Virus record (IMG/VR): IMGVR_UViG_2541047916_000008
Source of the DNA: a virus
Lineage: Duplodnaviria > Heunggongvirae > Uroviricota > Caudoviricetes
DNA: 45,879 nt
Direction: 5' to 3' (one strand)
The translations under genes and the position numbers were made by a program. Below are positions 3,042 to 45,879 of the stretch, piece after piece. The notes under the pieces are model-generated. The model was not told the DNA's origin. It made no database searches and saw nothing but the letters and a program-made list of their open reading frames with translations. Position 1 is the stretch's first letter, and every line of letters starts with the position of its first letter.

Positions 3042-3168
3042 TTTGTTCTCCACGTATATGCGCTGCACCGCGCTGAATTCTGGTAAAAGGAAGCCCTCAC
3101 CATCCGGCGATTATTGAGTTAATTACGTTTCCATAAATGCCCCCGCAGGGGCATTTGCAGTAATGAAA

Positions 3169-3993: not shown

Positions 3994-4058
3994 AATAAGT
4001 CCTCACTATATAAAGATATTCAGTGATGAGATAAATAATCGGTTAATTAAGAACGATA

Positions 4059-4421: not shown

Positions 4422-4469
4422 TTTGCTGCTCCTCATCATATCGACCCTGCAAGGTCGGTTGGTTTCTCC

Positions 4470-4558
4470 ACAAAACAGAGAAGAACACCTGCGGTGACTG
4501 CCGCCCGGATGGATTGGGTTATGAGCCCGTCGTCCGGTGATGCTCTTCTCTGTTTTGT
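4470..4558. repeat. Perfect 15-bp inverted repeat (acaaaacagagaaga / tcttctctgttttgt) separated by about 59 nt in the leader of the leftward operon
   Basis: Read directly from sequence; lies 50-130 nt upstream of the first early gene start. Confidence 0.6.
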
Positions 4559-4604
4559 AAAAAGAGCGGTACCAGCCGGAAGCAAGTGTACAAACTGGTA
4601 CCGC
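4557..4604 (-). terminator. Candidate intrinsic terminator in early-left leader (tL-like)
   Basis: 10-bp GC-rich stem gcggtaccag/ctggtaccgc with 19-nt loop; on the minus-strand transcript it is followed by UCUUUUU. Confidence 0.4.
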
Positions 4605-5029
4605 CAAAGCAGTGGCTGTTGTGGTGGGGTTGTCACTCAGGCGTATGGTCAACCTGACAATCCGGTGTCCTCAACGGGGAAAGAGTAACCCCGCCATACT
4701 TACCGCCGCGCCATTTCGCGGATTACCACAACGCTGAGAGCACTTAGCCAGTTACGGCACCACACTTTGTCGCGGTTCCATAAATGCCCTCATCGTTGCA
4801 CCCTGGTCTCTTCCCAGGCGTCAAACCGGATCGCCACGCTGGTTAGGCGTCTTATCAGCATCCTCATTGACTTGCACATTCCGGCTACCTGGTTTGTTTG
4901 CCCGAGCAAGGAGTGGATTGTCCCCTTTAACGTCCCCAGACCGCTAACGACGCATGTGCCATACGCCGTGTTACAACCAAATTTTGTTAGTACCTTGTTT
5001 GTAGGTCTGGAGAGAAAGATAAAATGAAG

Positions 5030-5067
5030 TTGCGCATTATGCAAGTGTTTTATTGCGAGATAAGCAA
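5030..5067. promoter_or_regulatory. OL-like operator pair (two 15-bp TTGCG-N6-GCAA sites) with presumed leftward promoter
   Basis: ttgcgcattatgcaa (5030-5044) and ttgcgagataagcaa (5053-5067), centres about 23 bp apart, just downstream of the repressor gene terminator. Confidence 0.5.
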
Positions 5068-5079
5068 TTTGGTGGGTAA

Positions 5080-5101
5080 TGAAAAGCCACCTTCTGGTGG
5101 C
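5080..5101 (-). terminator. Terminator of repressor gene
   Basis: gccacc-ttct-ggtggc hairpin; A-run on plus strand gives a U-run after the stem on the minus transcript; about 25 nt past the cI-like stop. Confidence 0.55.
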
Positions 5102-5123
5102 TAATTGATGTTGAGGTAGGGGG

Positions 5124-5816
5124 TTAATTGTGTCGCTTAAGGGTCTGTGACTGACTGATTAAGACCTTTCCAAAGACCATAAACCGGTGTTCGTTTTCGC
5201 TGGTAATTCCCCATTCGCGGTAAATCTGATTATCAGAAATTACCAGCAGTTTATCAGGTATCATTTGCAGTCGTTTGACGTAAATTTTATCATCAAAACC
5301 AAATACATATATACCATCCCCATCAAACTGATTGATACTGATATCAACGAAGATGAGATCTCCTGGCTCAATGGTTGGACACATACTGTCCCCACGAACG
5401 TTGATAACTTTAATGTGATTTGCTGGTCGTCCACCAAACATCGATACAGCATTATCAGTTCTGTATTCAATGGCATGAATCACATCAATGACATCACCGC
5501 CCTGGATAAGGCCATTTCCCGCACTGGCACTGACATCCAGCATTTCAATACGGAATACATCCTTCACCTGCGCAACATCCTCACTAATACTGTTTTTACA
5601 TACAGTATTACTTTTGAGGTCTGAGGTAAAGAGATCAGCAATATCAACACCTAAGCTCCTGGCAATATTACTCAGGGCTTGTTCAGTGAATTGTTTCTGC
5701 TTACCTGTTTCGAGGCGCGAGATATTCGCCGCATCCACTCCTATTGCTTCAGCGAGATCGGCGATTTTCATGTTCTTCGCCTGGCGAAGTTGTCTGACTC
5801 GATTTCCTATGTTCAT
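5124..5816 (-). CDS. CI-like prophage repressor (HTH_XRE N-terminal domain plus S24 LexA-like autopeptidase C-terminal domain)
   Basis: Track ORF; HTH motif IADLAEAIGVDAANISRLETG; C-terminal G-DSM...K motif of S24 peptidases; divergent from cro-like gene. Confidence 0.8.
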   Translation of the reverse strand: MNIGNRVRQLRQAKNMKIADLAEAIGVDAANISRLETGKQKQFTEQALSNIARSLGVDIADLFTSDLKSNTVCKNSISEDVAQVKDVFRIEMLDVSASAGNGLIQGGDVIDVIHAIEYRTDNAVSMFGGRPANHIKVINVRGDSMCPTIEPGDLIFVDISINQFDGDGIYVFGFDDKIYVKRLQMIPDKLLVISDNQIYREWGITSENEHRFMVFGKVLISQSQTLKRHN

Positions 5817-6174: not shown

Positions 6175-6718
6175 GCATCATTGGAAAGTGGAAAAACAAC
6201 CTGAGTGGTACGTGAAAGCTGTCAGAAAAACTATCGCGGCATTGCCTGGGGGTTACGCTGAAGCTGCTGACTGGCTGGATGTAACAGAGAACGCTTTATT
6301 CAACCGCCTTCGTGCAGATGGCGATCAGATTTTCCCGCTGGGATGGGCAATGGTTTTACAGCGCGCGGCTGGCACTCACTACATTGCGGATGCTGTCGCA
6401 CAGTCTGCTGGTGGGGTGTTCGTATCGCTTCCTGAAATTGAGGAAGTAGAGAACGCCGATATAAACCAGCGCCTGCTGGAAGTCATCGAACAGATCGGGA
6501 ATTACTCAAAGCAGATTCGTTCGGCAATCGAAGATGGGGTCGTGGAGCCACACGAGCAGACAGCAATTAATGATGAGTTGTATCTGTCAATTTCGAAGCT
6601 CCAGGAGCATGCAGCACTGGTCTACAAAATCTTCTGCGCTCCAGAAAAGAGTGACGCCCGCGAGTGTGCAGCTCCGGGCGTCGTGGCGTTTTGTGTCTGT
6701 GGAGAAACTAACGCATGA
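6167..6718 (+). CDS. CII-like phage regulatory protein (CP76-type family), tentative
   Basis: Track ORF immediately after cro-like gene; size (about 180 aa) and position fit enterobacterial CII/CP76-family proteins; family assignment from memory. Confidence 0.4.
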   Translation: MGKHHWKVEKQPEWYVKAVRKTIAALPGGYAEAADWLDVTENALFNRLRADGDQIFPLGWAMVLQRAAGTHYIADAVAQSAGGVFVSLPEIEEVENADINQRLLEVIEQIGNYSKQIRSAIEDGVVEPHEQTAINDELYLSISKLQEHAALVYKIFCAPEKSDARECAAPGVVAFCVCGETNA

Positions 6719-6863
6719 ACAGTTTAACGGCAAATAACCGTTTGTCGCAACAGCTGGTGGTCAGTGTCGCTGAACACCTGTTGTTACGGTATGAATGCAG
6801 ATTACCAAATCACCTGGCTGTAAGTAACCACAGAGAACTTTACCTGACTGTGGGGGGCGAGTT

Positions 6864-7043
6864 GTGCAGGAACTTAACCGCTGGTTTCGTGACGGAAGAG
6901 GGCTTTATGTCCATGTTATTCGTTGGGAGCCAGAAACACAGCGCGTTATCTATCTTCGCAAAGACTACCCGCATGAGTGCTTTAGTCCTTTGTGGAAATT
7001 CAGGCATGATTTTGTTGAGTGTGAAGGACCACCAGCACATTGA
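6864..7043 (+). CDS. Small hypothetical ORF (59 aa, GTG start) not in the 60-aa track
   Basis: Own translation of the frame offset from the track ORF: VQELNRWFRDGRGLYVHVIRWEPETQRVIYLRKDYPHECFSPLWKFRHDFVECEGPPAH; G-rich RBS-like run upstream; terminator about 90 bp downstream. Confidence 0.3.
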   Translation: MQELNRWFRDGRGLYVHVIRWEPETQRVIYLRKDYPHECFSPLWKFRHDFVECEGPPAH

Positions 7044-7128
7044 TTCTGCCATTCCGGGACGTTACACTGTTCAGGCACCTTATAAAGCGGGTGCCGGGCG
7101 TGGAAACCCGGAATTCACCAAAGCGCAC

Positions 7129-7151
7129 AACCGCGCTCTTGCGGTTTTTTT
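7129..7151 (+). terminator. Rho-independent terminator inside the apparent N-terminal extension of the Rha ORF
   Basis: aaccgc-gctctt-gcggtt hairpin followed by T7. Confidence 0.55.
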
Positions 7152-7320
7152 GTGTAATGAGCAGCATTACGCCCAAATTATGGTGGGGCGTGCAGGGCCA
7201 ACTTCGGTTGGGCCGGGTTCTTTGGTGACCGGTATTTCCACCCCTGTACGTCTCACCACCAATAAGGTCGTGGAAAGCCTTGGTGGTGAGTTATTAAAAA
7301 TCACCAAAGAGGCTGCCATC

Positions 7321-7866
7321 ATGGCTACGATCCCAACCCTCACTCAACCTGAAATTGCCATCGTTGATGGTCAGGCTGTTACTTCATCCCTGGCTGTTGC
7401 CAACTTCTTCTCCAAACGTCATGACGATGTACTGAAAAAGATCCGCACGCTTGAATGCTCTGCATCATTCACTGCCCGCAATTTTTCGGTGAGTGATTAC
7501 ACCGATTGCACAGGCCGCAAACTACCTTGCTATCAAATAACCCGCGACGGCTTTGCGTTTCTTGCTATGGGGTTCACGGGTAAACGTGCTGCCCAGTTCA
7601 AAGAGGCATACATCAATGCCTTTAACCAGATGGAGAAACAGCTTTCAAATCCCTCTGTACTGAGCGACGTTGCACATAACGCCAGCGTTCTCTATTCCTA
7701 CATTTCATCAATTCATCAGGTCTGGCTGCAGCAGCTTTATCCTATGTTGGCAAAAGCCGAATCTCCGCTGGCTGTTAGCTTGTATGACTATATTAATGAT
7801 GCTTCGGCACTGGCCTGCCTCATAAATTTGTCGCTGAACCCTTCAGAGGTAAGGGGGCGCAAATGA
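7321..7866 (+). CDS. Rha-family phage regulatory protein
   Basis: Track ORF 6715..7866 trimmed to Met at 7321 (AGAGG RBS); N-terminal Phage_pRha-like segment (VDGQAVTSSLAVANFFSKRHDDVLKKIR). Confidence 0.6.
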   Translation: MATIPTLTQPEIAIVDGQAVTSSLAVANFFSKRHDDVLKKIRTLECSASFTARNFSVSDYTDCTGRKLPCYQITRDGFAFLAMGFTGKRAAQFKEAYINAFNQMEKQLSNPSVLSDVAHNASVLYSYISSIHQVWLQQLYPMLAKAESPLAVSLYDYINDASALACLINLSLNPSEVRGRK

Positions 7867-14119: not shown

Positions 14120-15172
14120 ATGAAAAATACTGTAAAAATAAACAGTGTTGATTTAATCAACGCTGATTGCCTGCATTTTATTCAGTCCCTGCCTGATGAT
14201 TCCATTGACCTGATTGTTACCGATCCGCCTTACTTCAAGGTGAAACCCAACGGCTGGGACAATCAGTGGAAAGGGGACGAAGATTACCTTAAGTGGCTGG
14301 ACCACTGTCTGGCCCAGTTCTGGCGGGTGTTGAAACCTGCCGGAAGCCTTTACCTGTTCTGTGGGCATCGCCTGGCATCTGATATTGAGATCATGATGCG
14401 TGAACGTTTCAACGTGCTTAACCATATCATCTGGGCGAAGCCGTCCGGACGTTGGAATGGGTGTAATAAAGAAAGTCTGCGCGCATATTTTCCTGCCACA
14501 GAGCGCGTTCTGTTTGCTGAACATTACCAGGGGCCATATCGCGGCAAAAGTGACGGCTATGCGGCAAAAGAAAGGGAACTCAAACAGCACATAATGGCAC
14601 CGCTGATATCGTATTTCAGGGATGCTCGTGCCGAACTGGGTATAACGGCAAAACAGATTGCCGAAGCCACTGGTAAGAAAAATATGGTTTCCCACTGGTT
14701 TGGTGCCAGTCAGTGGCAGTTGCCGAATGAGGCTGACTACCGGAAGTTGCAGGCACTGTTTTCCCGTATAGCGGCAGAGAAGTTTCAGGAAAAACAACTG
14801 GAACAACCACACCACCAGCTGGTGGCATCTTATGATTCACTGAATCGCAAATATTATGAATTGCTGGATGAGTTTAAAACTCTCCGGCGCTATTTCTCCG
14901 TATCAGTTTCCGTGCCTTATACCGACGTCTGGATGCATAAACCCGTTCAGTTCTACCCGGGGAAACATCCGTGTGAGAAACCGGCGGATATGCTCAGGCA
15001 AATAATCAATGCCAGTAGTCGACCAGGTGATCTGGTTGCTGATTTTTTTATGGGCTCCGGTTCCACAATAAAAGCAGCAATGGCGCTGGGGCGTCGGGCC
15101 TTAGGTGTTGAGCTTGAGTCAGAGCGGTTTAACCAGACAGTGAAAGAGATAAACGAGCTGGTGGGGAAATAA
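14120..15172 (+). CDS. DNA methyltransferase, beta-class N6A/N4C type (DPPY motif IV N-terminal, FxGSG motif I C-terminal); no adjacent restriction gene
   Basis: Track ORF; [10 protein letters not shown] near N-terminus and DFFMGSGST near C-terminus. Confidence 0.7.
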
Positions 15173-32605: not shown

Positions 32606-33793
32606 ATGGGTAAAGGCAGCAGTAAGGGGCATACCCCGCGCGAAGCGAAGGACAACCTGAAGTCCACGCAGTTGCTGAGTGTGATCGATGCCATCAGCGA
32701 AGGGCCGGTTGAAGGTCCGGTGGATGGGTTAAAAAGCGTGCTGCTGAACAGTACGCCGGTGCTGGACAGTGAGGGGAATACCAATATCTCCGGTGTCACG
32801 GTGGTGTTCCGGGCAGGTGAGCAGGAGCAGACACCGCCGGAGGGGTTTGAATCCTCCGGCTCCGAGACGGTGCTGGGTACGGAAGTGAAATATGACACGC
32901 CGATCACCCGGACCATCACGTCGGCAAACATCGACCGTCTGCGCTTTACCTTCGGTGTACAGGCACTGGTGGAAACCACCTCAAAGGGAGACAGGAATCC
33001 GTCGGAAGTTCGCCTGCTGGTTCAGATACAGCGTAACGGTGGCTGGGTGACGGAAAAAGACATCACCATTAAGGGCAAAACCACCTCGCAGTATCTGGCC
33101 TCGGTGGTGGTGGATAACCTGCCTCCGCGCCCGTTCAATATCCGGATGCGCAGGATGACACCGGACAGCACCACAGACCAGCTGCAGAACAAAACGCTCT
33201 GGTCGTCATACACCGAAATCATCGATGTGAAACAGTGCTACCCGAACACGGCACTGGTCGGCGTGCAGGTGGATTCGGAGCAGTTCGGCAGCCAGCAGGT
33301 GAGCCGTAATTATCATCTGCGCGGGCGTATTCTGCAGGTGCCGTCGAATTATAACCCGCAGACGCGGCAATACAGCGGTATCTGGGACGGAACGTTAAAA
33401 CCAGCATACAGCAACAACATGGCCTGGTGTCTGTGGGATATGCTGACCCACCCGCGCTACGGCATGGGGAAACGTCTTGGTGCGGCGGATGTGGACAAAT
33501 GGGCGCTGTATGTCATCGGCCAGTACTGCGACCAGTCAGTGCCGGACGGCTTTGGCGGCACGGAGCCGCGCATCACCTGTAATGCGTACCTGACCACACA
33601 GCGCAAGGCGTGGGATGTGCTCAGTGATTTCTGCTCGGCGATGCGCTGTATGCCGGTATGGAACGGGCAGACGCTGACGTTCGTGCAGGACCGACAGTCG
33701 GATAAGGTGTGGACCTATAACCGCAGTAATGTGGTGATGCCGGATGATGGCGCGCCGTTCCGCTACAGCTTCAGCGCCCTGAAGGACCGCCTA
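32606..33793 (+). pseudogene. J: Tail tip/host-specificity gene J, N-terminal fragment (interrupted by IS insertion)
   Basis: Near-identical in recollection to lambda J residues 1 to about 395 (MGKGSSKGHTPREAKDNLK...FRYSFSALKDR), then reading frame leaves J after Arg codon 33788-33790. Confidence 0.8.
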
Positions 33794-33884
33794 TGAGACG
33801 ACAATAACTCAGTCCGCCTGGCGCCGATTATTCTGGCCGGTTTTGTAACCTGAGTGTCATTTACATGATCCAACAGGAAATGGC

Positions 33885-35384
33885 GTGACGCTCAATACTT
33901 CTCAGGTCAGTTACTATATGACTCAGCGTAAGAAAGGTATAACTCAGCATATCTCGGCCATGAAGGCTGGTATCTCAGTCCGTTCTGGTCGTCGGATCGA
34001 AAAAGGAGAGTGGGCAAAAAACAGTGTTCGGCACTGGCGCACACGCAAAGATCCTCTGGAAGCTGTGTGGGACAGCATGCTTGTTCCTCTGTTGAAAGAG
34101 AGGCCGGCTCTGACACCAACAACTCTGCTGGAGATGCTACAGGATAAATATCCCGGCCAGTACCCCAACAGCCTTCGAAGAACAATGCAACGGCGGGTCC
34201 GCGAATGGAAGCTACAGTATGGTGCAGAGCAGGAGGTCATGTTCCGCCAGCGACATCAGCCCGGTCTGCGAGGTCTGTCGGACTTTACTGAACTGAAAGG
34301 TGTAGTTGTCACCATCGCCGGTAAGTTGTTGGCGCATAAGTTGTATCACTTCCGTCTGGAATGGAGCCACTGGAGCTGGATGCGGGTTGTGCTGGGTGGT
34401 GAGAGCTTCTCTGCTCTGGCTGAAGGTCTGCAGGAAGCCCTCGGACAACTGGGCGGAGTGCCGGTAGAACATAAAACGGACAGCCTGAGGGCAGCATGGA
34501 AACAACAGGGCGAAGATGGACGCCGCGAGCTGACTGAGCGTTATGCTGCTCTCTGTCAGCACTACGGAATGCAGGGCGTACACAATAATGCCGGTCGGGG
34601 CCACGAAAATGGCTCGGTTGAAAGTGCCCACGGACATCTGAAAAGGCGTATCTGTCAGGCGCTGATACTGCGGGGCAGTAACGACTTCAGCACCATAGAA
34701 GAATATCAGGCCTTCATCACTCAGCAGGTTATGCGGCACAACCGTAACAATCAGGATCTGGTCAAGGAAGAACGTCTTCATCTGAAACCGCTGCCGCTTC
34801 GTCGCAGTGCTGACTATGATGAGCTGACTGTGAGGGTTAGCCGCAGCAGTACCATCAATGTGAAGCACGTCGTCTACAGCGTACCTTCCCGGCTTGTAGG
34901 TCAACTGTTACGGGTCCGGTTATGGGACGATCGTCTGAGCTGTTACGTTGGCAGCAGCGAGGTCATGAGCTGCCCACGTGTCAGACCAGAAAAAGGGAAG
35001 ACGCGGGCCCGTCGTATCGACTTCCGACATGTGATCGACAGTCTGGCAAAAAAGCCCGGTGCGTTCTGCCATGCAACGCTGAGAAATGACATCCTGCCAG
35101 ACGATGAATGGCGGAGGCTGTGGCGTCGCTTATGTAATCATCTGGAACCCGACATGGCAGGCAGGCTGATGGTACATGCTCTGAAACTGGCTGCAGGATA
35201 CGACGATATCTCAGTCGTGGCAAAAGGTATGGAGCAGATGCTGAATACCCCGGGAAACGTGGATCTGCACCGGCTGATGCGCTTCCTGGGTATAAAGGAA
35301 AAGGCGTTGCCGGTAGTCAATGTGAAACAGCATAACCTGAGCAGTTATGAGCAACTACTGCGTGGCAAGGGAGGTTCGCAGTGA
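33885..35384 (+). CDS. istA: IS21-family transposase IstA
   Basis: Track ORF, 499 aa, N-terminal HTH and DDE-type integrase core typical of IstA; GTGA overlap with istB. Confidence 0.75.
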   Translation: MTLNTSQVSYYMTQRKKGITQHISAMKAGISVRSGRRIEKGEWAKNSVRHWRTRKDPLEAVWDSMLVPLLKERPALTPTTLLEMLQDKYPGQYPNSLRRTMQRRVREWKLQYGAEQEVMFRQRHQPGLRGLSDFTELKGVVVTIAGKLLAHKLYHFRLEWSHWSWMRVVLGGESFSALAEGLQEALGQLGGVPVEHKTDSLRAAWKQQGEDGRRELTERYAALCQHYGMQGVHNNAGRGHENGSVESAHGHLKRRICQALILRGSNDFSTIEEYQAFITQQVMRHNRNNQDLVKEERLHLKPLPLRRSADYDELTVRVSRSSTINVKHVVYSVPSRLVGQLLRVRLWDDRLSCYVGSSEVMSCPRVRPEKGKTRARRIDFRHVIDSLAKKPGAFCHATLRNDILPDDEWRRLWRRLCNHLEPDMAGRLMVHALKLAAGYDDISVVAKGMEQMLNTPGNVDLHRLMRFLGIKEKALPVVNVKQHNLSSYEQLLRGKGGSQ

Positions 35385-36136
35385 GCAATATCCATCACCT
35401 TGAACGCAGCCTGCGTAAACTACGCCTGACACGAGTTGGAGCTGAATGGCACGCTCTGGAAAAACGAGCACTGGCAGAAGGCTGGACACCATCGCGCTAT
35501 CTTCTGACGCTATGCAATGAAGAACTCCTGTGGCGCGAGAGTGAAAAACTGCGTCGTTATAAAAAGGAGGCCCGGTTGCCAGTTGCCAAAACGCTAAGCG
35601 AATACGACTTCAGTCAGGTGCCGGAACTGAATGGAGCTCAGTTCCGGCAACTCTGTGAAACGACAGACTGGGTTGATGCAGGAGAAAACGTTCTGCTGTT
35701 CGGAGCCAGCGGGTTGGGGAAAAGCCATCTGGCGGCAGCGATCGTGGATGGCGTAGTAGGCCAGGGCTACCGGGCCCGGTTCTACAGCGCAGGAGAGTTG
35801 TTGCAGGAACTACGTAAAGCCAGAGCGCAGTTGAAACTGAATGAGCTGCTACTGAAACTGGATCGCTACCGGGTGATAGTGGTGGATGATCTTGGCTATG
35901 TCAAACGCGACAGCGCCGAAACGGGAGTACTGTTCGAGTTAATAGCGCATCGCTATGAACGTGGGAGCCTGGTGATAACCAGTAACCATCCGTTCAGCAT
36001 GTGGGGCAGCATCTTCGTGGATGAGACTATGGCGGTGGCGGCGGCAGACCGGCTGATCCATCACGGATATATGTTCGAACTGAAAGGTGAAAGCTACAGG
36101 AAAAAGACAGCGAAGGCAGTAACAAGCGCGACTTGA
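35381..36136 (+). CDS. istB: IS21-family helper ATPase IstB
   Basis: Track ORF, 251 aa; Walker A GASGLGKSH and Walker B VIVVDDLG. Confidence 0.8.
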   Translation: MSNIHHLERSLRKLRLTRVGAEWHALEKRALAEGWTPSRYLLTLCNEELLWRESEKLRRYKKEARLPVAKTLSEYDFSQVPELNGAQFRQLCETTDWVDAGENVLLFGASGLGKSHLAAAIVDGVVGQGYRARFYSAGELLQELRKARAQLKLNELLLKLDRYRVIVVDDLGYVKRDSAETGVLFELIAHRYERGSLVITSNHPFSMWGSIFVDETMAVAAADRLIHHGYMFELKGESYRKKTAKAVTSAT

Positions 36137-36203
36137 TGTCGCACTGAAGGGTGCGGCCAGTATAGTTGGCGCGAGTCGGCAAAACTAGTTGACGTCTAAT
36201 AAC

Positions 36204-38501
36204 CGCCATAATGCCGTTGAGGTGAACTGGATTGACCCGAACAACGGCTGGGAGACGGCGACAGAGCTTGTTGAAGATACGCAGGCCATTGCCCGTTACG
36301 GTCGTAATGTTACGAAGATGGATGCCTTTGGCTGTACCAGCCGGGGGCAGGCACACCGCGCCGGGCTGTGGCTGATTAAAACGGAGCTGCTGGAGACGCA
36401 GACCGTGGATTTCAGCGTCGGCGCAGAAGGGCTTCGCCATGTACCGGGCGATGTTATTGAAATCTGCGATGATGACTATGCCGGTATCAGCACCGGTGGT
36501 CGTGTGCTGGCGGTGAACAGCCAGACCCGGACGCTGACGCTCGACCGTGAAATCACGCTGCCATCCTCCGGTACCACGCTGATAAGCCTGGTTGACGGAA
36601 GTGGCAATCCGGTCAGCGTGGAGGTTCAGTCCGTCACCGACGGCGTGAAGGTAAAAGTGAGCCGTGTTCCTGAGGGTGTTGCTGAATACAGCGTATGGGG
36701 GCTGAAGCTGCCGACGCTGCGCCAGCGCCTGTTCCGCTGCGTGAGTATCCGTGAGAACGACGACGGCACGTATGCCATCACCGCCGTGCAGCATGTGCCG
36801 GAAAAAGAGGCCATCGTGGATAACGGGGCGCACTTTGACGGCGAACAGAGTGGCACGGTGAATGGTGTCACGCCGCCAGCGGTGCAGCACCTGACCGCAG
36901 AAGTCACTGCAGACAGCGGGGAATATCAGGTGCTGGCGCGATGGGACACACCGAAGGTGGTGAAGGGCGTGAGCTTCCTGCTTCGCCTGACCGTGGCAGC
37001 GGATGACGGCAGTGAGCGGCTGGTCAGCACGGCCCGGACGACGGAAACCACATACCGCTTCACGCAACTGGCGCTGGGAAACTACAGGCTGACAGTCCGG
37101 GCGGCAAATGCCTGGGGGCAGCAGGGCGATCCGGCATCGGTATCGTTCCGTATTGCCGCACCGGCAGCGCCGTCGCGGATTGAGCTGACGCCGGGCTATT
37201 TTCAGATAACCGCCACGCCCCATCTTGCCGTTTATGATCCGACGGTACAGTTTGAGTTCTGGTTCTCGGAAAAGCGGATTGCAGATATCAGGCAGGTTGA
37301 AACCACAGCACGCTATCTTGGCACGGCGCTGTACTGGATAGCCGCCAGTATCAATATCAAACCGGGCCATGATTATTATTTTTACATTCGCAGTGTGAAC
37401 ACCGTTGGCAAATCGGCATTTGTGGAGGCTGTTGGCCAGCCGAGTGATGATGCATCCGGCTATCTGGATTTTTTCAAAGGAGAGATAGGGAAAACCCATC
37501 TGGCTCAGGAGTTGTGGACGCAGATTGATAACGGTCAGCTTGCGCCTGACCTGGCTGAAATCAGGACGTCCATTACGGATGTCAGCAATGAAATCACGCA
37601 GACCGTCAATAAGAAACTGGAAGACCAGAGTGCAGCGATCCAGCAGATACAGAAGGTTCAGGTTGATACAAATAATAACCTGAACAGCATGTGGGCTGTG
37701 AAGCTGCAGCAGATGCAGGACGGACGCCTTTATATCGCGGGTATTGGTGCCGGTGTTGAGAATACCCCTGACGGTATGCAGAGTCAGGTGCTGCTGGCGG
37801 CGGACAGGATTGCGATGGTTAATCCTGCGAATGGCAACACAAAGCCGATGTTTGTTGGTCAGGGCGATCAGATATTTATGAATGAAGTGTTCCTGAAATA
37901 TCTGACGGCTCCCACCATTACCAGCGGCGGTAATCCTCCGGCATTTTCCCTGACACCGGACGGGCGGCTGACGGCGAAAAATGCCGATATCAGCGGTAAC
38001 GTGAATGCGAACTCCGGGACGCTCAACAACGTCACGATTAACGAGAACTGCCGGGTTCTGGGAAAACTGTCCGCGAACCAGATTGAAGGCGATCTCGTTA
38101 AAACAGTGGGCAAAGCTTTCCCCCGGGACTCCCGTGCACCGGAACGGTGGCCATCAGGGACCATTACCGTCAGGATTTATGACGATCAGCCGTTTGACCG
38201 GCAGATTGTTATTCCGGCGGTGGCATTCAGCGGCGCTAAACATGAGAGAGAGCATACTGATATTTACTCCTCATGCCGTCTGATAGTGCGGAAAAACGGT
38301 GCTGAAATTTATAACCGTACCGCGCTGGATAATACGCTGATTTACAGTGGCGTTATTGATATGCCTGCCGGTCACGGTCACATGACGCTGGAGTTTTCGG
38401 TGTCAGCATGGCTGGTAAATGACTGGTATCCCACAGCAAGTATCAGCGATTTGCTGGTTGTGGTGATGAAGAAAGCCACCGCAGGCATCAGTATCAGCTG
38501 A
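36204..38501 (+). pseudogene. J: Tail tip gene J, C-terminal fragment (resumes after IS)
   Basis: Track ORF 36189..38501; from codon at 36207 ([16 protein letters not shown]...) matches lambda J continuation; extreme C-terminus differs from lambda J (different receptor-binding region). Confidence 0.8.
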
Positions 38502-38568
38502 ATTTTATAACCCCAATACGGGCGTCAGAAATGACGCCTTTTTTATTGCAGAAAAGCGAGAGGTAATT

Positions 38569-39168
38569 ATGCGTAAATTATGTGCTGTTATTCTGTCCGC
38601 AGTAGTCTGGCTGGTTGCCGCTGGTACGCCAGCGAGCGCAGCAGAGCATCAGTCCACACTAAGCGCCGGGTATCTTCAGACCCATACTGATATGCCAGGC
38701 AGCGATGACCTGAAGGGCATTAACGTGAAATACCGTTATGAATTTACGGACACGCTGGGGCTGGTGACGTCATTCAGCTATGCAGGAGACAAGAATCGCC
38801 AGCTTACCCGTTACAGCGATACCCGCAGGCATGAAGATTCCGTTCGTAACCGCTGGTTCAGCGTGATGGCGGGGCCATCTGTACGCGTGAATGAATGGTT
38901 CAGTGCTTATGCGATGGCAGGTGTGGCTTACAGCCGTGTTTCGACGTTCTCCGGGGATTATCTCCGCGTAACTGACAACAAGGGGAAAACGCACGATGTG
39001 CTGACCGGAAGTGATGACGATCGCCACAGCAACACGTCTCTGGCGTGGGGAGCTGGCGTGCAGTTTAACCCGACCGAATCCGTGGCCATTGATATTGCTT
39101 ATGAAGGTTCCGGCAGTGGCGACTGGCGTACTGACGGTTTCATCGTGGGTGTCGGTTATAAATTCTGA
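38569..39168 (+). CDS. lom: Lom-like outer membrane protein (Ail/Lom/OmpX family)
   Basis: Track ORF; signal peptide; close to lambda Lom across the length. Confidence 0.8.
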
Positions 39169-39194
39169 TTAGCCAGGTAACACAGTGTTATTAC

Positions 39195-39222
39195 AGCCCG
39201 CCGGTTCAGGCGGGCTTTTTTG
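39195..39222 (+). terminator. Terminator after lom
   Basis: agcccgcc-ggttcagg-cgggct hairpin followed by T6. Confidence 0.55.
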
Positions 39223-39232
39223 TGGAGTGGAT

Positions 39233-41590
39233 ATGGCAGCAGTAAAAATCTCAGGTGTGCTGAAAGATGGTGCGGGAAAACCAATACAGAACTGCACTAT
39301 TCAACTGAAGGCAAAGCGTAACAGCACCACGGTACTGGTGAACACGGTGGCCTCTGAAAATCCGGATGAAGCCGGGCGTTACAGCATGGATGTTGAGTAT
39401 GGCCAGTACAGCGTCACCCTGCTGGTTGAAGGTTTTCCGCCTTCACATGCCGGGACCATTACCGTCTATGAAGGCTCCAGACCCGGTACGCTGAATGATT
39501 TTCTCGGTGCCATGACGGAAGATGACGTCATGCCGGAGGCATTGCGTCGTTTTGAGGCAATGGTGGAAGAAGCGGCACGCAACGCCGAAGCCGCCTCTCA
39601 GAGCGCAGCGGCGGCAAAGAAATCCGAAACGGCTGCGGCATCATCGAAGAACGCGGCGAAAACCTCAGAAACGAATGCAGCTAACAGCGCACAGGCGGCA
39701 GCGGCCTCGCAGACTGCATCGGCAAACTCCGCGACAGCAGCCAAAAAATCAGAAACCAACGCGAAAAATAGCGAGACAGCCGCAAAGACGAGCGAAACCA
39801 ACGCAAAGTCCAGCCAGACGGCAGCGAAAACCAGCGAAACGAATGCCAAAGCCAGTGAAACTGCGGCGAAAAATAGCCAGAATGCAGCAGCCGAAAGCGA
39901 GAGTGCGGCAGCTGGTTCTGCGACTTCAGCAGCTGGATCAGCAACTGCTGCGGCTAACAGCCAGAAAGCAGCGAAGACGAGCGAAACTAACGCAAAGTCC
40001 AGCCAGACGGCAGCGAAGACCAGCGAAACGAATGCCAAAGCCAGCGAAACTGCGGCGAAAAACAGTCAGGATGCAGCAGCCCAAAGCGAGAGTGCTGCAG
40101 CTGGTTCTGCAACAGCTGCAGCTAATAGCCAAAAAGCTGCAAAAACCAGTGAAACTAACGCAAAGACGAGTGAAACAAAAGCAGCAGCCAGCGAGACAGA
40201 AGCAACGTCAGCCGCAACAAGAGCAGAGAATGCAGCCCGGATTGCAGAAGATGCCGCTGATCCTGCTTCTGTCCCTCCGCTTCCTGATATCTGGCTACCC
40301 TTGAATGATTCTCTGGAAGCGATAACAGGGTATGCCCCGGGCTATAAAACAATAACCATCGGCAGTGATGAAATAACAATGCCTGTTAATGGCATATGCC
40401 AATTTAGCCGGGCTTCATCTGCAACGTATATTGATAAGTCCGGGCATATTACCGTGGCAGGGAATAACGTTCCTCGTTTTGAAAAATATGGTTTGCTGAT
40501 AGAGAATCAGCGAACAAACATGTTCGTAAATAGTTTTAATCCTGATGCCTGGAATAAAAGCGGTGGTATATCTGTAACATCATCAACAGATGAATTTGAG
40601 TTTAAATATGGACGTTTCACGGTAGGAAGCGATATAGCAGGAACGACAACAGGGAGAAATATATGCACAGTTGCTGGTAACAAAGGCATAGATGTGACTG
40701 GCGATGATCAGTACAGTAAAGGTCCGTATGTTACCGCGTCATTCAGGGTAAGAAGTGATCTCAATGTTCGCGCACGTATCCGTTTTGAACGGTATAACTC
40801 GGAAGGATACACCTTCCTTTGCGACGCCTATTTGTCATTACAGACCCATGAACTACAAATTACTGGTGGCAATGCCCAGCTATTAACAGCAAACTTTGAA
40901 ATCGATCCTGGTAGTGGATGGATATACTTTCAGGCAACACTGAAATGTCTGCCAGAATGGGGAATGGTTGGTACGCAGCTGCAAATTGCAGCCGACAGAG
41001 CTGTGGGGTCTTTTGCAACAGGTGACTGGATAGAAGTAACCACCCCGCAATTCGAGTATGGTGCTTGTGCAACTTCCTTCATCATAACGACAACAGAGCC
41101 AGCGACTCGTGCATCAGATTTATGTAAATTTCCGCTGATGAAAAATATGTATACCATGCCTTTTACGTTCATGGTGGAAGTCCATAAAAACTGGTTTATT
41201 TCTCATAATGCTGCACCGCGTGTCATTGATTCAGAAAATCACCAGTCCGGAGGCCCATTTATTATGGGGTTTGGTTCTTCTGGAACTATTAGTCAGGACG
41301 GTTATTCGTATTGCGATATAGGCGGGGCTAACCGACGTGTATATGAATCATGCGGAGTAAGGGATCTCGTTATGGGATTCAGGGTTAAGGCTGACGGCAT
41401 GACATGCTCATTTGCAAATAAGCATATAAGCACTGAAACAAAAACAGTATGGAAATATATTCGTGAAGCAGCCGTGATTCGTATCGGGGGGCAAACGACG
41501 ACAGGATTACGACACCTTAATGGTCATATAAAAAACCTCCGTTTCTGGAACAGAGCATTGTCAGATACGCAGCTTAAGGAATACGTATAA
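39233..41590 (+). CDS. stf: Side tail fibre protein (Stf-like N-terminus, Ala/Ser/Thr-rich repeat region, C-terminal lectin-like domain)
   Basis: Track ORF 39185..41590 trimmed to MAAVKISGVLKDGAGKP (matches lambda Stf N-terminus); C-terminus ends with NLRFWNRALSDTQL, a LamG/ConA-like signature from memory. Confidence 0.75.
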   Translation: MAAVKISGVLKDGAGKPIQNCTIQLKAKRNSTTVLVNTVASENPDEAGRYSMDVEYGQYSVTLLVEGFPPSHAGTITVYEGSRPGTLNDFLGAMTEDDVMPEALRRFEAMVEEAARNAEAASQSAAAAKKSETAAASSKNAAKTSETNAANSAQAAAASQTASANSATAAKKSETNAKNSETAAKTSETNAKSSQTAAKTSETNAKASETAAKNSQNAAAESESAAAGSATSAAGSATAAANSQKAAKTSETNAKSSQTAAKTSETNAKASETAAKNSQDAAAQSESAAAGSATAAANSQKAAKTSETNAKTSETKAAASETEATSAATRAENAARIAEDAADPASVPPLPDIWLPLNDSLEAITGYAPGYKTITIGSDEITMPVNGICQFSRASSATYIDKSGHITVAGNNVPRFEKYGLLIENQRTNMFVNSFNPDAWNKSGGISVTSSTDEFEFKYGRFTVGSDIAGTTTGRNICTVAGNKGIDVTGDDQYSKGPYVTASFRVRSDLNVRARIRFERYNSEGYTFLCDAYLSLQTHELQITGGNAQLLTANFEIDPGSGWIYFQATLKCLPEWGMVGTQLQIAADRAVGSFATGDWIEVTTPQFEYGACATSFIITTTEPATRASDLCKFPLMKNMYTMPFTFMVEVHKNWFISHNAAPRVIDSENHQSGGPFIMGFGSSGTISQDGYSYCDIGGANRRVYESCGVRDLVMGFRVKADGMTCSFANKHISTETKTVWKYIREAAVIRIGGQTTTGLRHLNGHIKNLRFWNRALSDTQLKEYV
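39785..40145. repeat. Tandem duplication (about 170-190 bp units, roughly 90 percent identical) inside stf
   Basis: aagacgagcgaaac(c/t)aacgcaaagtccagccagacggcagcgaa(a/g)accagcgaaacgaatgccaaagccag... occurs twice in tandem (starts about 39785 and 39974); wider low-complexity zone 39590-40230. Confidence 0.7.
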
Positions 41591-41859
41591 TGCGGGATAT
41601 AACATTACGATTCGATAACAGAGAACAGTTTAACGCAATTGTATATGACAGTGGCCTGTTCAGTCTTGAAGAAGAAAACGGGGTTCTTGTTGATGTTATT
41701 GGCTGCATTATCGATTACGAGGAGCCAGAAAACGAAAGATGTACAGGCATTGATCGCGGTGGTTTTTTCGTAAACATGAGGATTGTTGATAGCAGTAAAA
41801 ACATATCTTCTTTAATGCCTTTCATTACGACAGATCAGCATGTAAGGACATGGGCTTAA
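41590..41859 (+). CDS. Small hypothetical protein (89 aa), AT-rich
   Basis: Track ORF immediately after stf stop. Confidence 0.35.
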   Translation: MRDITLRFDNREQFNAIVYDSGLFSLEEENGVLVDVIGCIIDYEEPENERCTGIDRGGFFVNMRIVDSSKNISSLMPFITTDQHVRTWA

Positions 41860-41871
41860 TGGAGTAAGACA

Positions 41872-42555
41872 ATGGTTACAAAAACAGTAATTCCGGGAGA
41901 CATCACCACGCTAAAGGGAGATATTTCCTCAATTAACGGAAAAGTATCAACGCTTCAGACTGAGATGACCAGTGCAAAGCAGGATATCAGCTCCAGATAC
42001 ACAAAAACTGAAGTTGATAATAAGCTGAAAAACAAACTGGAAGTGAATGCTCTCGAAAGCGGTAATTATGGTGGAGATTTTTACCCGCTGACTGGCCGCG
42101 AAGCGTTTTATTTATGGGGGTTGGGCACGACTACTGCGGCGGCAAACCTTTATCTTAATCCTGACCCTGCAATTTCGTCTGTACTGCGGTCAACATCGTC
42201 TATCCGCTATAAACATTCAGTAGAGACGATAGATTCAGAGCACGCCGATGTCATTTTCAGGATGCGCCCTGTGTGGTACAGGTCGCAATGCGAAAATGAC
42301 AGGCGTGACTGGGGGTTCTACGGATTGATTGCCGAGGAAGTAGGAGAAATTGCCCCTCAGTTTGTACACTGGCGACCAGCTAACGAAGATGATGCTCCTG
42401 AAGCTATTTCCAGCAATGGCCTTGTTGCCGAAGGTGTAATGTACGAACGTCTGGTTGTTCCACTGATTCACCATATCCAGAAGCTGACAGAAAGAGTTGA
42501 TGAACTTGAGTCAGAATTAAAGTTGTTATTAACTTCCCGAAGCGATATCGGATAA
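41872..42555 (+). CDS. Tail-fibre-associated protein with C-terminal peptidase-S74-like intramolecular chaperone domain
   Basis: Track ORF; C-terminal pattern SSIRYKHSV...PVWY...GLIAEEV...Y..L.VPLIHHIQKL..R..ELE fits the S74 chaperone consensus as I recall it; N-terminal coiled-coil-like 90 aa. Confidence 0.45.
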   Translation: MVTKTVIPGDITTLKGDISSINGKVSTLQTEMTSAKQDISSRYTKTEVDNKLKNKLEVNALESGNYGGDFYPLTGREAFYLWGLGTTTAAANLYLNPDPAISSVLRSTSSIRYKHSVETIDSEHADVIFRMRPVWYRSQCENDRRDWGFYGLIAEEVGEIAPQFVHWRPANEDDAPEAISSNGLVAEGVMYERLVVPLIHHIQKLTERVDELESELKLLLTSRSDIG

Positions 42556-42558
42556 AGG

Positions 42559-42852
42559 ATGAAAATGGATATAACACCTTTCCTTCATGCACTTTGTGCT
42601 GTGGCTGCGCAGGTACTGGTTGGTCTTTTTACCGGAAACTGGGCTTACGGGGCGATAGCCGGTTGTACATTCTTCATTGCGCGGGAACACACCCAGGCAG
42701 AATATCGCTGGATTGAAATGTTCGGGCATGGCAAGCGTATGAATATGCCGTGGTGGGGCGGTTTTGATCCACGTGCATGGGATGTGGCAAGCCTGATGGA
42801 TTTTGCTGTGCCGGTGGTGGCGTGTCTGCTGATCTGGATGTTGATCCGTTAA
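42559..42852 (+). CDS. Small membrane protein (two predicted TM helices), unknown function
   Basis: Track ORF; hydrophobic segments at both ends. Confidence 0.4.
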   Translation: MKMDITPFLHALCAVAAQVLVGLFTGNWAYGAIAGCTFFIAREHTQAEYRWIEMFGHGKRMNMPWWGGFDPRAWDVASLMDFAVPVVACLLIWMLIR

Positions 42853-42867
42853 ATATAAAAAGTAAAA

Positions 42868-42902
42868 AGCCGCAGTAACTTGTCATGATAGGATACTGCG
42901 GC
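42868..42902 (-). terminator. Terminator of dinI-like gene (may act bidirectionally)
   Basis: agccgcagta ... tactgcggct stem; A-rich tract on plus strand gives a U-run after the hairpin on the minus transcript. Confidence 0.45.
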
Positions 42903-42969
42903 TGGCTGGTTAACTTTCGATAGTGCGAGTATTGAATGATTTCCAGCCGTTACCGATTTTACGTGTTAA

Positions 42970-43218
42970 TTAGTGAACAAACCACTCGTCAGCAGACTCC
43001 CAGGTATCTTTCAGAGTTTCCTGAACAAAAGTTTTAGCTGAATCTTTATCGGCGGTGCGCGTAACAGAAAGGCCATCGTTGCTGGTGGCTTTTACGATCA
43101 CCTCTACATCGTCATAACGTTTACTGATGCGTCGGGTTAATTCTTCCTTTAACGCATCCACAGCACCGGTTGGCATTTTAGTCATTTTTTCTTTGGCTAT
43201 GCAGATTTCAATACGCAT
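42970..43218 (-). CDS. DinI-family DNA-damage-inducible protein
   Basis: Track ORF, 82 aa; MRIEI.IAK...P.GA.DAL..EL..RI......E.........LSV......D......[12 protein letters not shown] matches DinI. Confidence 0.7.
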
Positions 43219-43231
43219 AAAAGTCCCTCTA

Positions 43232-43279
43232 TACTGTGTTTGTATACAGTGTTATTTTTGACTGTATGGATAAACAGTG
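43232..43279. promoter_or_regulatory. Two tandem LexA (SOS) boxes upstream of dinI-like gene
   Basis: tACTGTgtttgtatACAGtg (43232-43251) and gACTGTatggataaACAGtg (43260-43279); both CTGT-N8-ACAG. Confidence 0.65.
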
Positions 43280-44377
43280 TCAAGAGGTCTTATTTCTGCT
43301 CTTTTGGAGCTCTTCAAAACGATTATGTAAAGATTTCGGATACAGTTCGGTATATACCTGCCATAGCACGTTTAATGAACGATGCCCTGTAACTTGGGCG
43401 ACTTCCTCAATACTAAAACCAGCCTCAAATAAGCGACTTGCCCCTTCTCTACGCAAATCATGGTATCGCAGATCTTTAATACCTAATTTGCTTCTTACCC
43501 TCTGAAATCCCGCAGTAACAGAAGTGCTGTTATATGGAAAAATGAATTCCGATTTTTGGGGCTGTCGTTGGACGATATCCCAGGCTTCCCCAAGCAAGGC
43601 TACTTTCATGTGGTTGCCTTCCTTTTTGCGTGGATCTTTCCTGTCTCTTACGAGTATAGATTTTTGTTCCTGGTCGAGATCTTCCCATCGTAACCGGCAT
43701 ACTTCTCCGATTCGCATACAGGACCACACAGAAAATTTGAGGATATCAACGAACGGAATTTTTGAGCATTTATGTGTAGATCGTTGTTGAAGACCTTCAA
43801 TGAGCATGTCCAGTTCATCAGATGCCGGTCTACGATTACGACGGTTTGATTTACCAATCAAACCAAGTTTAAGTAGATATGGACGAGCACTTTTCGCCGG
43901 GTTTGATGTGTAATTAATTCCGTATACAGGTTTGGCCGCATCCAGAACACTGCCAAGATAACTAACATCGTGGCTGACTGTTGCTGGACCTGCACCAGCG
44001 TTGTTTCTTAGCCTACAATGTTCAATTACGTCATTTTCTGTCAGTTCGGATAGTTTGATCGCGGAGATGTCACTATCCATAAGCAGTTCCAGCACATATC
44101 TTTTAGTACGACCTGCTTTACCTCCGGCATTTGGGTCATTTAAATATTTGTGTAGTAAGTCACGGACTGTAAGTCCGTCAACTGCATTTGATGATGGAAT
44201 GCCATATAGATCTAATTCCATCACTTTCTGTGTACCCCATGTTTTGGCATGGGCATGTTTAGGGAATGTTTTGCTTTCCCTGTAAGTGATAACACCTTTT
44301 TCTTTGATAATCACATTACAGCGATAGCGTGGTGTGCCATCGGATTTTAGTCGTTTCTCTATGTTATAGTACGCCAT
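43280..44377 (-). CDS. Tyrosine recombinase (phage integrase), divergent from dusA
   Basis: Track ORF, 365 aa; C-terminal R...HDLR...Y catalytic pattern (RYHDLRREGASR ... LWQVYTELY); AT-rich. Confidence 0.8.
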   Translation of the reverse strand: MAYYNIEKRLKSDGTPRYRCNVIIKEKGVITYRESKTFPKHAHAKTWGTQKVMELDLYGIPSSNAVDGLTVRDLLHKYLNDPNAGGKAGRTKRYVLELLMDSDISAIKLSELTENDVIEHCRLRNNAGAGPATVSHDVSYLGSVLDAAKPVYGINYTSNPAKSARPYLLKLGLIGKSNRRNRRPASDELDMLIEGLQQRSTHKCSKIPFVDILKFSVWSCMRIGEVCRLRWEDLDQEQKSILVRDRKDPRKKEGNHMKVALLGEAWDIVQRQPQKSEFIFPYNSTSVTAGFQRVRSKLGIKDLRYHDLRREGASRLFEAGFSIEEVAQVTGHRSLNVLWQVYTELYPKSLHNRFEELQKSRNKTS

Positions 44378-44395
44378 TACACGACCTCGTTATTT

Positions 44396-44432
44396 CGGGT
44401 TCCCATAAATCGTGGGAACCTGTGCGGGAACC
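44396..44432. promoter_or_regulatory. GGGAACC repeat cluster (one inverted pair plus one direct copy) between integrase and dusA; candidate integrase/att-associated or promoter element
   Basis: ggttccca-taaatcg-tgggaacc palindrome (44398-44420) then cgggaacc (44425-44432). Confidence 0.35.
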
Positions 44433-44465
44433 TAACGCGAGAAAAATAGCCTGAAATGTTCAAAA

Positions 44466-45503
44466 ATGCACGATAATCCTGAAACACAGAAAACTAATCA
44501 AACCAGCGCGATGCCTGAGAAAACTGGCGCTTACGGGAGTTCTCGGTTTAGCATTGCTCCTATGCTTGACTGGACGGACAGACATTGCCGTTATTTCCTG
44601 CGTCTGCTTTCCCGCAATACGTTGCTGTATACCGAAATGGTGACCACAGGGGCGATTATTCACGGTAAAGGTGATTACCTGGCGTACAGTGAAGAAGAAC
44701 ATCCGGTAGCGTTGCAACTCGGGGGTAGCGATCCGGCGGCGCTGGCACAGTGTGCGAAGCTGGCAGAAGCGCGCGGATATGATGAGATCAACCTGAATGT
44801 CGGCTGCCCGTCTGACCGGGTGCAGAACGGCATGTTTGGTGCGTGTCTGATGGGTAATGCGCAGCTGGTTGCCGACTGCGTGAAAGCGATGCGCGATGTG
44901 GTGTCGATTCCGGTGACGGTGAAAACGCGTATTGGCATCGATGATCAGGACAGCTATGAATTTCTCTGCGATTTCATCAACACCGTTTCCGGCAAAGGTG
45001 AGTGTGAGATGTTCATCATCCACGCACGTAAAGCCTGGCTTTCTGGGTTAAGTCCGAAAGAAAACCGTGAGATCCCGCCGCTCGATTATCCGCGTGTGTA
45101 TCAACTGAAGCGTGACTTTCCGCATCTGACGATGTCGATTAACGGTGGTATCAAGTCGCTGGAAGAAGCTAAAGCGCATTTGCAACATATGGATGGCGTG
45201 ATGGTCGGGCGCGAGGCGTATCAGAATCCGGGGATTCTGGCGGCGGTAGACCGAGAGATTTTTGGTTCCTCGGATACCGATGCCGATCCGGTGGCGGTAG
45301 TGCGCGCCATGTATCCGTACATTGAGCGTGAACTCAGCCAGGGTACGTATCTCGGCCATATTACCCGGCATATGCTGGGCTTGTTCCAGGGTATTCCTGG
45401 CGCGCGGCAGTGGCGGCGTTATTTAAGTGAAAATGCCCATAAAGCGGGTGCAGACATTAATGTGCTGGAACACGCGCTCAAACTGGTGGCGGATAAGCGT
45501 TAA
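44466..45503 (+). CDS. dusA: tRNA-dihydrouridine synthase A
   Basis: Track ORF, 345 aa; DusA-type TIM-barrel flavoenzyme sequence (NLNVGCPS, catalytic Cys, FMN-binding motifs); followed by pspG as in E. coli. Confidence 0.9.
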
Positions 45504-45636
45504 CTTTTCACCAAAAAGTAGTCAAATTCACCACGCCCTGCGCACCGTCGCGGGGTGTTTTGCTGTTAAATCAACAGATTATTTTTGGCATGATTCTTGT
45601 AATGCCAGCAAGAGATTTCATATTTGGGAGAGCATC

Positions 45637-45879
45637 ATGCTGGAACTACTTTTTGTAATTGGCTTTTTTGTCATGCTGATGGTCACCGGTGTTTCGTTGC
45701 TGGGTATTATCGCCGCGCTGATTGTGGCGACGGCCTTTATGTTCCTCGGCGGTATGCTGGCATTGATGATTAAGTTGCTGCCGTGGCTGCTGTTGGCGGT
45801 TGCGGTGGTGTGGGTGATCAGGGCAATTAAAGCACCAAAAGTGCCGAAATATCAGCGTTATGACCGCTGGCGTTACTAA
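45637..45879 (+). CDS. pspG: Phage shock protein G
   Basis: Track ORF 45427..45879 trimmed to Met at 45637 (MLELLFVIGFFVMLMVTGVSLLG...); small two-TM membrane protein. Confidence 0.75.
   Translation: MLELLFVIGFFVMLMVTGVSLLGIIAALIVATAFMFLGGMLALMIKLLPWLLLAVAVVWVIRAIKAPKVPKYQRYDRWRY

Follow-up and report, generated by a model that had tools for sequence, protein, structure and literature searches.

Interruption of the tail-tip gene J by ISEc10 in a lambda-like prophage related to PhiR55.1

The tail-tip gene J of a lambda-like prophage is interrupted by the insertion sequence ISEc10. The prophage was examined in a 45,879-nucleotide stretch of DNA (virus record IMGVR_UViG_2541047916_000008), referred to here as the window, and the insertion lies in draft genome GCA_000460815.1, scaffold KE702044.1. 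The sequence is very probably explained by a simple insertion of ISEc10 into codon 396 of J in a PhiR55.1-like prophage, which terminates J and would almost certainly leave the prophage unable to form infectious particles unaided. An intact version of the same phage, found in strain ECAMP047 and as the plaque-forming phage PhiR55.1, served for comparison.

The interrupted gene and the inserted element

Gene J spans positions 32606-38501, and the list of open reading frames and the sequence itself place ISEc10 after codon 395. J has no single continuous reading frame in the window. Since it is interrupted at codon 396, J is a pseudogene. The features of the region are listed below.

32606-33796, + strand: J N-terminal fragment, 395 J codons followed by Leu and TGA from the end of the IS; 396 aa
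33786-33791, no strand: left target-site duplication ACCGCC, present only once in the ECAMP047 empty site
33792-36201, + strand: ISEc10 (IS21 family), 2,410 bp, oriented as the phage late operon
33792-33839, no strand: left terminal inverted repeat (IRL), 48 nt, 71% complementary to 36154-36201
33885-35384, + strand: istA, transposase, 499 aa, GTG start; NCBIfam NF033546, 227 bits against a cut-off of 160
35381-36136, + strand: istB, 251-aa AAA+ helper ATPase; GTG start, overlapping the stop codon of istA within GTGA
36154-36201, no strand: right terminal inverted repeat (IRR), containing TTGACG, which ends 7 nt from the tip
36202-36207, no strand: right target-site duplication ACCGCC, read from the sequence
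36208-38501, + strand: J remainder, codon 396 to the stop, with neither a start codon nor a ribosome-binding site of its own
36311-36728, + strand: patch of 8 SNPs relative to the ECAMP047/PhiR55.1 J allele, all at third codon positions
38106-38498, + strand: J C-terminal receptor-binding domain (Pfam Ig_GpJ_C), divergent from lambda

The final whole J codon before the element is CGC (33788-33790, codon 395). Codon 396 (CAT) is cut after its first base, so the fragment has Leu in its place and stops at TGA (33794-33796). Translation stops two codons inside ISEc10, leaving a 396-aa fragment that ends within the Phage-tail_3 hub domain. A preliminary description of this DNA had J matching lambda J up to the same codon and then a 2.4-kb istA/istB element, and both the reading frames and the sequence agree. 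It had J resume at 36204. The in-frame repeat of codon CGC does begin there, but the duplicated bases start at 36202 and unique J sequence at 36208. The hexamer ACCGCC, also described as duplicated around the insertion, was found at both junctions and singly in the empty site of ECAMP047, which reads ...GAAGGACCGCCATAATGCC....

The N-terminal fragment is ∼98% identical to lambda J at the amino acid level and matches Pfam FNIII-A_GpJ together with profile positions 1-65 only of Phage-tail_3. Phage-tail_3 is thus divided between the two fragments; the remainder contains its positions 64-162, followed by Ig_J, Ig_J_second, Phage_Tail_Tip and Ig_GpJ_C. Across both fragments the J domain series is complete (FNIII-A, Phage-tail_3, two Ig_J, Phage_Tail_Tip and Ig_GpJ_C). 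Neither half has a frameshift or stop of its own, and in-silico removal of ISEc10 and one ACCGCC generates a continuous J reading frame of 3,480 nt (1,159 aa). The other 764 J codons have no start signal. Restart of translation for the C-terminal part at TTG 36189, GTG 36222 or ATG 36318 is unlikely, as none has a properly spaced Shine-Dalgarno sequence. An outward hybrid promoter reading into J was also rejected: TTGACG (36189-36194) is only 12 nt before CATAAT, and a consensus scan identified no promoter there. Nor were promoters or terminators in excess within ISEc10 by that scan.

The inserted element is 100% identical over positions 1-2410 to many copies annotated as ISEc10 under RefSeq/PGAP naming. 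The product of istA occurs at the same position in other ISEc10 copies as RefSeq WP_000174402.1, and that of istB as WP_000065240.1. IstB scored 209 bits with Pfam IstB_IS21 and 266.7 bits with NCBIfam NF038214 (cut-off 200). It has a Walker A motif, GASGLGKS, at residue 108 and a Walker B motif, VIVVDD, at residue 165. Candidate catalytic residues D133, D199 and E246 of IstA were read from the sequence; a sequence search of the PDB returned no solved IstA structure. The earlier assignment to the IS21 family holds, with both proteins above the cut-offs of the NCBI IS21 models and the DNA that of ISEc10.

A repeat search placed the longest inverted repeat of the region exactly on the ISEc10 termini. 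The imperfect terminal inverted repeats described earlier are therefore genuine, 48 nt long and 71% complementary, at termini that six other copies define independently. Those six independent copies, in unrelated flanking DNA, have identical ends and a 6-bp duplication each of their own. All seven copies compared, including the one in J, end 5'-TATGAG...CTAATA-3'. IS21 elements usually end 5'-TG...CA-3' according to the ISfinder family description, a tendency and not a defining rule. The ISEc10 ends finish in TA and depart from this tendency, which is a property of ISEc10 itself, common to the seven copies.

Intact relatives, distribution and age of the insertion

Window positions 1-33791 match the ECAMP047 prophage at 100.000%, without a single mismatch in 33.8 kb. 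Positions 36202-45879 differ by 11 SNPs over 9.7 kb, with no gaps. The ECAMP047 prophage adjoins dusA and has an intact J. By BLAST and partial alignment, PhiR55_1 (PV340571.1) is 100% identical over window positions 1-24000 and 99.8% identical over the rest excluding ISEc10; its J is likewise intact at 3,480 bp. PhiR55.1 forms plaques in efficiency-of-plaquing assays (10.1101/2025.11.03.685801). E. coli C is given as the host of PhiR55_1. The ECAMP047 prophage and PhiR55_1 are the same phage, sharing gene order and integrase with the window prophage. They differ from it in their intact J and lack of an IS, and the window J adds a short recombination patch. The host prophage is a lambda-like element that sits at dusA and is in essence plaque-forming PhiR55.1.

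The preliminary description called the phage otherwise intact. This is borne out by the absence of gaps relative to ECAMP047 or PhiR55.1 and by the protein-level differences, which amount to two substitutions, both in J. All other genes are identical or carry synonymous or intergenic SNPs only; the comparison covers the phage map apart from its first 761 bp, which fall beyond the window. The annotation of the ECAMP047 reference prophage marks none of its essential genes as a pseudogene.

Differences within J fall in two places. The first is the patch of 8 SNPs, 7/8 of them synonymous. The segment 36250-36790 is 100% identical to gpJ alleles of other E. coli prophages. Third-position SNPs together with identity to other J alleles argue for recombination, and mutational decay was rejected as the source of the cluster on the same grounds. 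The patch probably arose by gene conversion, with another lambdoid J as donor.

The second is the receptor-binding end. The window J shares with lambda gpJ the same Pfam domain series, in the same H-M-L-K-I-J-lom-stf gene order, and its best PDB match is lambda J, 8iyk. Over residues 1-800 it is ∼98% identical to lambda J at the amino acid level. It differs, apart from the interruption of the gene, by 27 extra residues and by divergence at 800-950. The last ∼160 aa are only ∼45% identical to lambda J, in keeping with the earlier remark that this end is unlike lambda's, and the C-terminal domain scores better against PDB 9wca ('A8 gpJ') than against lambda J. Because the J end diverges from lambda J, the receptor may be other than LamB.

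The element itself is widespread, found in 899/5,426 complete E. coli genomes with 7 copies in CFT073. The insertion in J is not. The ISEc10-J junction did not occur in any of the 5,426 complete E. coli genomes, nor in the metagenome contigs and species-representative genomes scanned, and a 153-billion-gene index has the truncated J protein on a single contig. Only a single draft genome or strain has the insertion, which supports a recent event. The initial impression of a recent insertion agrees with the identity of the IS to other copies, the undecayed J halves and the truncated protein on a single contig.

Expected phenotype and other explanations

Insertion into J would have proceeded as follows. 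IstA, a DDE transposase, and IstB, an AAA+ target-capture ATPase, would join the IS ends to a 6-bp staggered cut, and repair of the cut would generate the ACCGCC duplication. These steps are drawn from knowledge of the IS21 family. New ISEc10 insertions arise in CFT073 under laboratory conditions (PMC7482066).

In lambda, assembly of the tail begins with J (PMC3224144). Because of this role of J, the induced prophage should be able to excise, replicate, fill its heads and lyse the host, but its own genes should yield neither tails nor infectious particles. We infer that the prophage is tail-defective on its own genes. The tail deficiency could be masked by a second J gene in the same cell.

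Such help is the alternative that survives best, and we regard it as unlikely. A co-resident lambdoid prophage would supply J or tails in trans, or repair J by recombination, and the genome would still spread, maybe with ISEc10. E. coli genomes have J-like genes at 2-3 places (median), and the 8-SNP patch matching other prophage J alleles shows past exchange among J genes; another J could therefore supply the protein or repair the gene. In O157 Sakai, lambdoid prophages defective in morphogenesis still undergo packaging and transfer (PMC2669165), and at 45.3 kb the genome with the IS is within the 44.5-47.0 kb spanned by the sequenced relatives mEp460 and cdtI. Against this, the genome of the source strain is known here from this window alone, the patch exchange may be older than the insertion, and a foreign J would alter the host range. 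A stronger version of this scheme is decidedly improbable: the phage with the J lesion, helped by a co-resident prophage, would be packaged and would spread ISEc10, with induction setting off bursts of transposition. Late read-through from the Q-dependent promoter would enter the co-oriented istAB and could trigger such a burst on induction.

We felt that the source of the sequence, a 2013-era draft scaffold (KE702044.1), made an assembly error worth weighing. ISEc10 is multi-copy in related strains, a multi-copy IS is a classic source of assembly errors, and a repeat copy could have been misplaced in J during draft scaffolding. A misplaced copy would not generate an exact 6-bp target duplication, and the one found here is precise and has the same length as in the six other copies. 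Not a base is missing from either IS end, and the window contains no Ns. An artefact is very improbable on this evidence.

That J is naturally two genes, or that the prophage was already defective elsewhere and the IS incidental, is hardly credible, with no evidence found in its favour, and is refuted by the intact alleles: the ECAMP047 prophage and plaque-forming PhiR55.1 each have a single 3,480-bp J, the other genes are identical or show only synonymous or intergenic SNPs, and the essential reference genes include no annotated pseudogene. The intact J of both relatives therefore indicates that J is not naturally split and that the prophage is otherwise intact; the two-gene arrangement, which the preliminary description had named as one finding that would overturn its reading, is ruled out.

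Simple insertion into an otherwise intact phage remains the preferred explanation. J should be annotated as an ISEc10-disrupted pseudogene, and the prophage as 'intact apart from one lesion', not plainly 'intact'. The case is a clean single step in which an active IS turns a functional temperate phage non-transmissible, with host lysis probably retained. With a functional phage, PhiR55.1, available as reference, the strain could be used as a naturally occurring J-null control. The finding raises no new question.

Comparison with known insertions

ISEc10 in CFT073, ST131 strains and many plasmids has the same 2,410 bp, termini and duplication length as the copy in J, and only the site differs. 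ISEc10 was found in or beside the J region in 3 complete genomes: in lom, in the gap between I and J, and, going by the genome scan, near gpJ. The copies in lom (strain Ecol_316) and between I and J (strain 06-00048) match ours in the IS, its orientation to the late operon and the neighbourhood, but leave J intact. A preference of ISEc10 for lambdoid tail regions was rejected, with 3 cases seen against ∼4 expected by chance. This is a rough estimate from 1,132 ISEc10 places and ∼3 J regions of 6 kb per 5.1-Mb genome.

The event is already known in kind; it is real but ordinary. IS-disrupted lambdoid prophages of O157 Sakai likewise have an IS in a single essential late gene of a lambda-like prophage, as in Sp4, where nu1 is disrupted by an IS (PMC2669165). 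They differ in the IS and the gene, and usually have several defects, whereas the window prophage has a single lesion.

The interrupted J gene and its insertion element

An IS21-family element had been reported within the lambda-type tail-tip gene J (32606-38501), and the reading frames bear this out.

32606-33796, plus strand: ORF of 396 aa, N-terminal part of J (ORF list and raw sequence)
33885-35384, plus strand: ORF of 499 aa, istA (ORF list; NCBIfam IS21 transposase)
35381-36136, plus strand: ORF of 251 aa, istB, overlapping the stop of the 499-aa ORF in GTGA (Pfam IstB_IS21)
Stop at 38501, plus strand: ORF for the rest of J (ORF list and Pfam)

Using Pfam, FNIII-A_GpJ and Phage-tail_3 profile positions 1-65, the N-terminal part of lambda J, were located in the first ORF, while Phage-tail_3 positions 64-162, Ig_J, Ig_J_second, Phage_Tail_Tip and Ig_GpJ_C, the remaining J, were located in the last. 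A single domain is therefore cut in two. The J reading ends two codons inside the element, and for the 764 J codons downstream there is no start codon provided with a ribosome-binding site. Removal in silico of the element and one ACCGCC restored an ORF of 3,480 nt (1,159 codons), and secondary damage was absent from both J halves.

In NCBIfam the 499-aa product scored 227 bits against the IS21 transposase family (cut-off 160) and the 251-aa product 266.7 bits against the IstB helper family (cut-off 200); Walker A and Walker B motifs were found in IstB. The element comprises the 2,410 bp between two copies of ACCGCC (33786-33791 and 36202-36207), with TATGAG as its first and CTAATA as its last bases. 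The imperfect terminal inverted repeats reported previously are the longest inverted repeat of the region, 48 nt with 71% complementarity, placed exactly at the element's ends. The interval 33792-36201 was compared by megablast with 5,426 complete E. coli genomes. ISEc10 matches occurred in 899/5,426 genomes, with 7 copies in CFT073. Many were full-length at 100% identity, on both chromosomes and plasmids, and these were all annotated 'IS21-like element ISEc10 family'. The element is accordingly classed as ISEc10 itself.

Six ISEc10 copies from unrelated contexts were aligned at both ends. Identity begins and ends at exactly the same bases, and each copy has its own 6-bp direct repeat (GTCTTC, GGCTCC, CCTGGT, GGGATT, GGTGCC, CTGATC), which establishes the limits of the element and the 6-bp duplication independently of the J locus. 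At the level of sequence, simple transposition with target duplication is shown. IstA (DDE) and IstB (AAA+) perform IS21-family transposition, and would have carried ISEc10 into J. ISEc10 is active, with new insertions arising in CFT073 under selection (PMC7482066).

At the right end of the element (36189-36201) TTGACG ends 7 nt from the tip, and at the left end (33792-33805) GACAAT occupies element positions 9-14. A head-to-tail junction would place the two 17-18 nt apart, which we take to resemble the junction promoter described for IS21.

The host prophage and the age of the insertion

E. coli strain ECAMP047 carries the same prophage between zur and dusA, its tyrosine integrase adjoining dusA. 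Window positions 1-33791 match it with 0 mismatches, and positions 36202-45879 differ by 11 substitutions without gaps. The non-J SNPs are one synonymous and one intergenic, and the J proteins differ only by E551D and V912I. The sequenced phages PhiR55_1 and PhiR40_1 match window 1-24000 at 100% identity. Over the remaining window PhiR55_1 is 99.8% identical excluding the element, the match ending at about 44571, within the 5' end of dusA. Efficiency-of-plaquing assays used PhiR55.1 and PhiR40.1 (10.1101/2025.11.03.685801), so the phage type is viable. We classify the phage as PhiR55.1-like. That it is otherwise intact is well supported by the ECAMP047 prophage and PhiR55.1, for the phage map beyond its first 761 bp, which lie outside the window.

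Several other features of the prophage were recorded. The tyrosine integrase gene (43280-44377, minus strand) abuts dusA (44466-45503), and this dusA-integrating phage apparently provides a substitute for the 5' end of dusA. A phage-borne YafO-family type II toxin gene occupies 1-435; its partner, a YafM antitoxin by the annotation of PhiR55_1, falls just outside the window on the upstream side. Rfam placed isrK (7075-7151) and C4 antisense RNA (7176-7263) inside the Rha-family regulator gene region (6715-7866), a P1/P7-style antisense control module inside a lambdoid early region. A 350-aa DNA methyltransferase gene (14120-15172) separates the Q antiterminator from the lysis cassette, occupying the slot where Stx phages carry toxin genes. 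The side-tail-fibre gene (39185-41590) contains an internal tandem-like duplication of 168-bp segments (39767-39934 and 39956-40123, ~90% identical).

The exact 396-aa truncated product was found on one contig only, KE702044.1 of GCA_000460815.1, the scaffold that includes the window sequence itself. The same insertion was not found in any of the 5,426 complete E. coli genomes searched, and a 31-nt junction probe had no match in metagenome or species-representative collections. With the element identical to other ISEc10 copies and the J halves undamaged, these comparisons mark the insertion as recent, as first suggested, and private to one strain. Independent ISEc10 insertions, in the same orientation as here, occur in related lambdoid prophages: one splits lom in E. 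coli Ecol_316 (locus L002, 6464-9479) and one lies between tail genes I and J in E. coli 06-00048 (locus L003, about 2990-5460). By a rough estimate, insertions at these two places are no commoner than random insertion predicts.

Consequences for the tail and alternative explanations

Lambda tail assembly begins on J (PMC3224144), and by analogy the J-null prophage should therefore fill heads and lyse the cell without making tails. No outward promoter created by the element was found. The element has the same orientation as the late transcripts, and these, being antiterminated, are therefore expected to continue across it; expression of lom and of the side-tail-fibre genes may persist.

The only serious qualifier is rescue of the J defect by another lambdoid prophage. 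J-like genes occur at a median of 2-3 per E. coli genome. Eight SNPs relative to the ECAMP047/PhiR55.1 J cluster in 420 bp (36311-36728) just downstream of the element, 8/8 at third codon positions and 7/8 synonymous, and other prophages, for example in O26 STEC, have gpJ alleles that match 36250-36790 at 100% identity. This patch resembles a tract of gene conversion with another lambdoid J as donor and is evidence of exchange between J genes. Defective Sakai prophages, moreover, were transferred with the help of co-resident prophages (PMC2669165). Misplacement of a repeat copy of ISEc10 in J during assembly is unlikely, because it would not yield the 6-bp duplication. Intact relatives exclude both an earlier defect elsewhere in the prophage and a J that is naturally split. 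An uninterrupted gpJ, exactly 3,480 bp long, is present in many E. coli genomes; the nearest (ECAMP047, 99.7% identical) reads ...GAAGGACCGCCATAATGCC... at the site.

The preliminary description was thus correct in its finding, and its interpretation is supported. Decay of prophages through IS disruption of their late genes is well known. What is new is the strain-specific annotation only; the element, the phage type and the decay route were already known.

Comparison with lambda J

Repaired J shares ~98% identity with lambda J across residues 1-800. The stretch 800-950 is divergent and contains 27 additional residues, and conservation returns at ~950-1000. Over the last ~160 residues identity falls to ~45%, in agreement with the difference reported for the receptor-binding end. 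Among solved structures the C-terminal 300 residues scored higher against 'A8 gpJ' (PDB entry 9wca) than against lambda J, as did the receptor-binding domain itself (38106-38498), which may point to a receptor other than LamB. Such C-terminal variation in J is usual among lambdoid phages.
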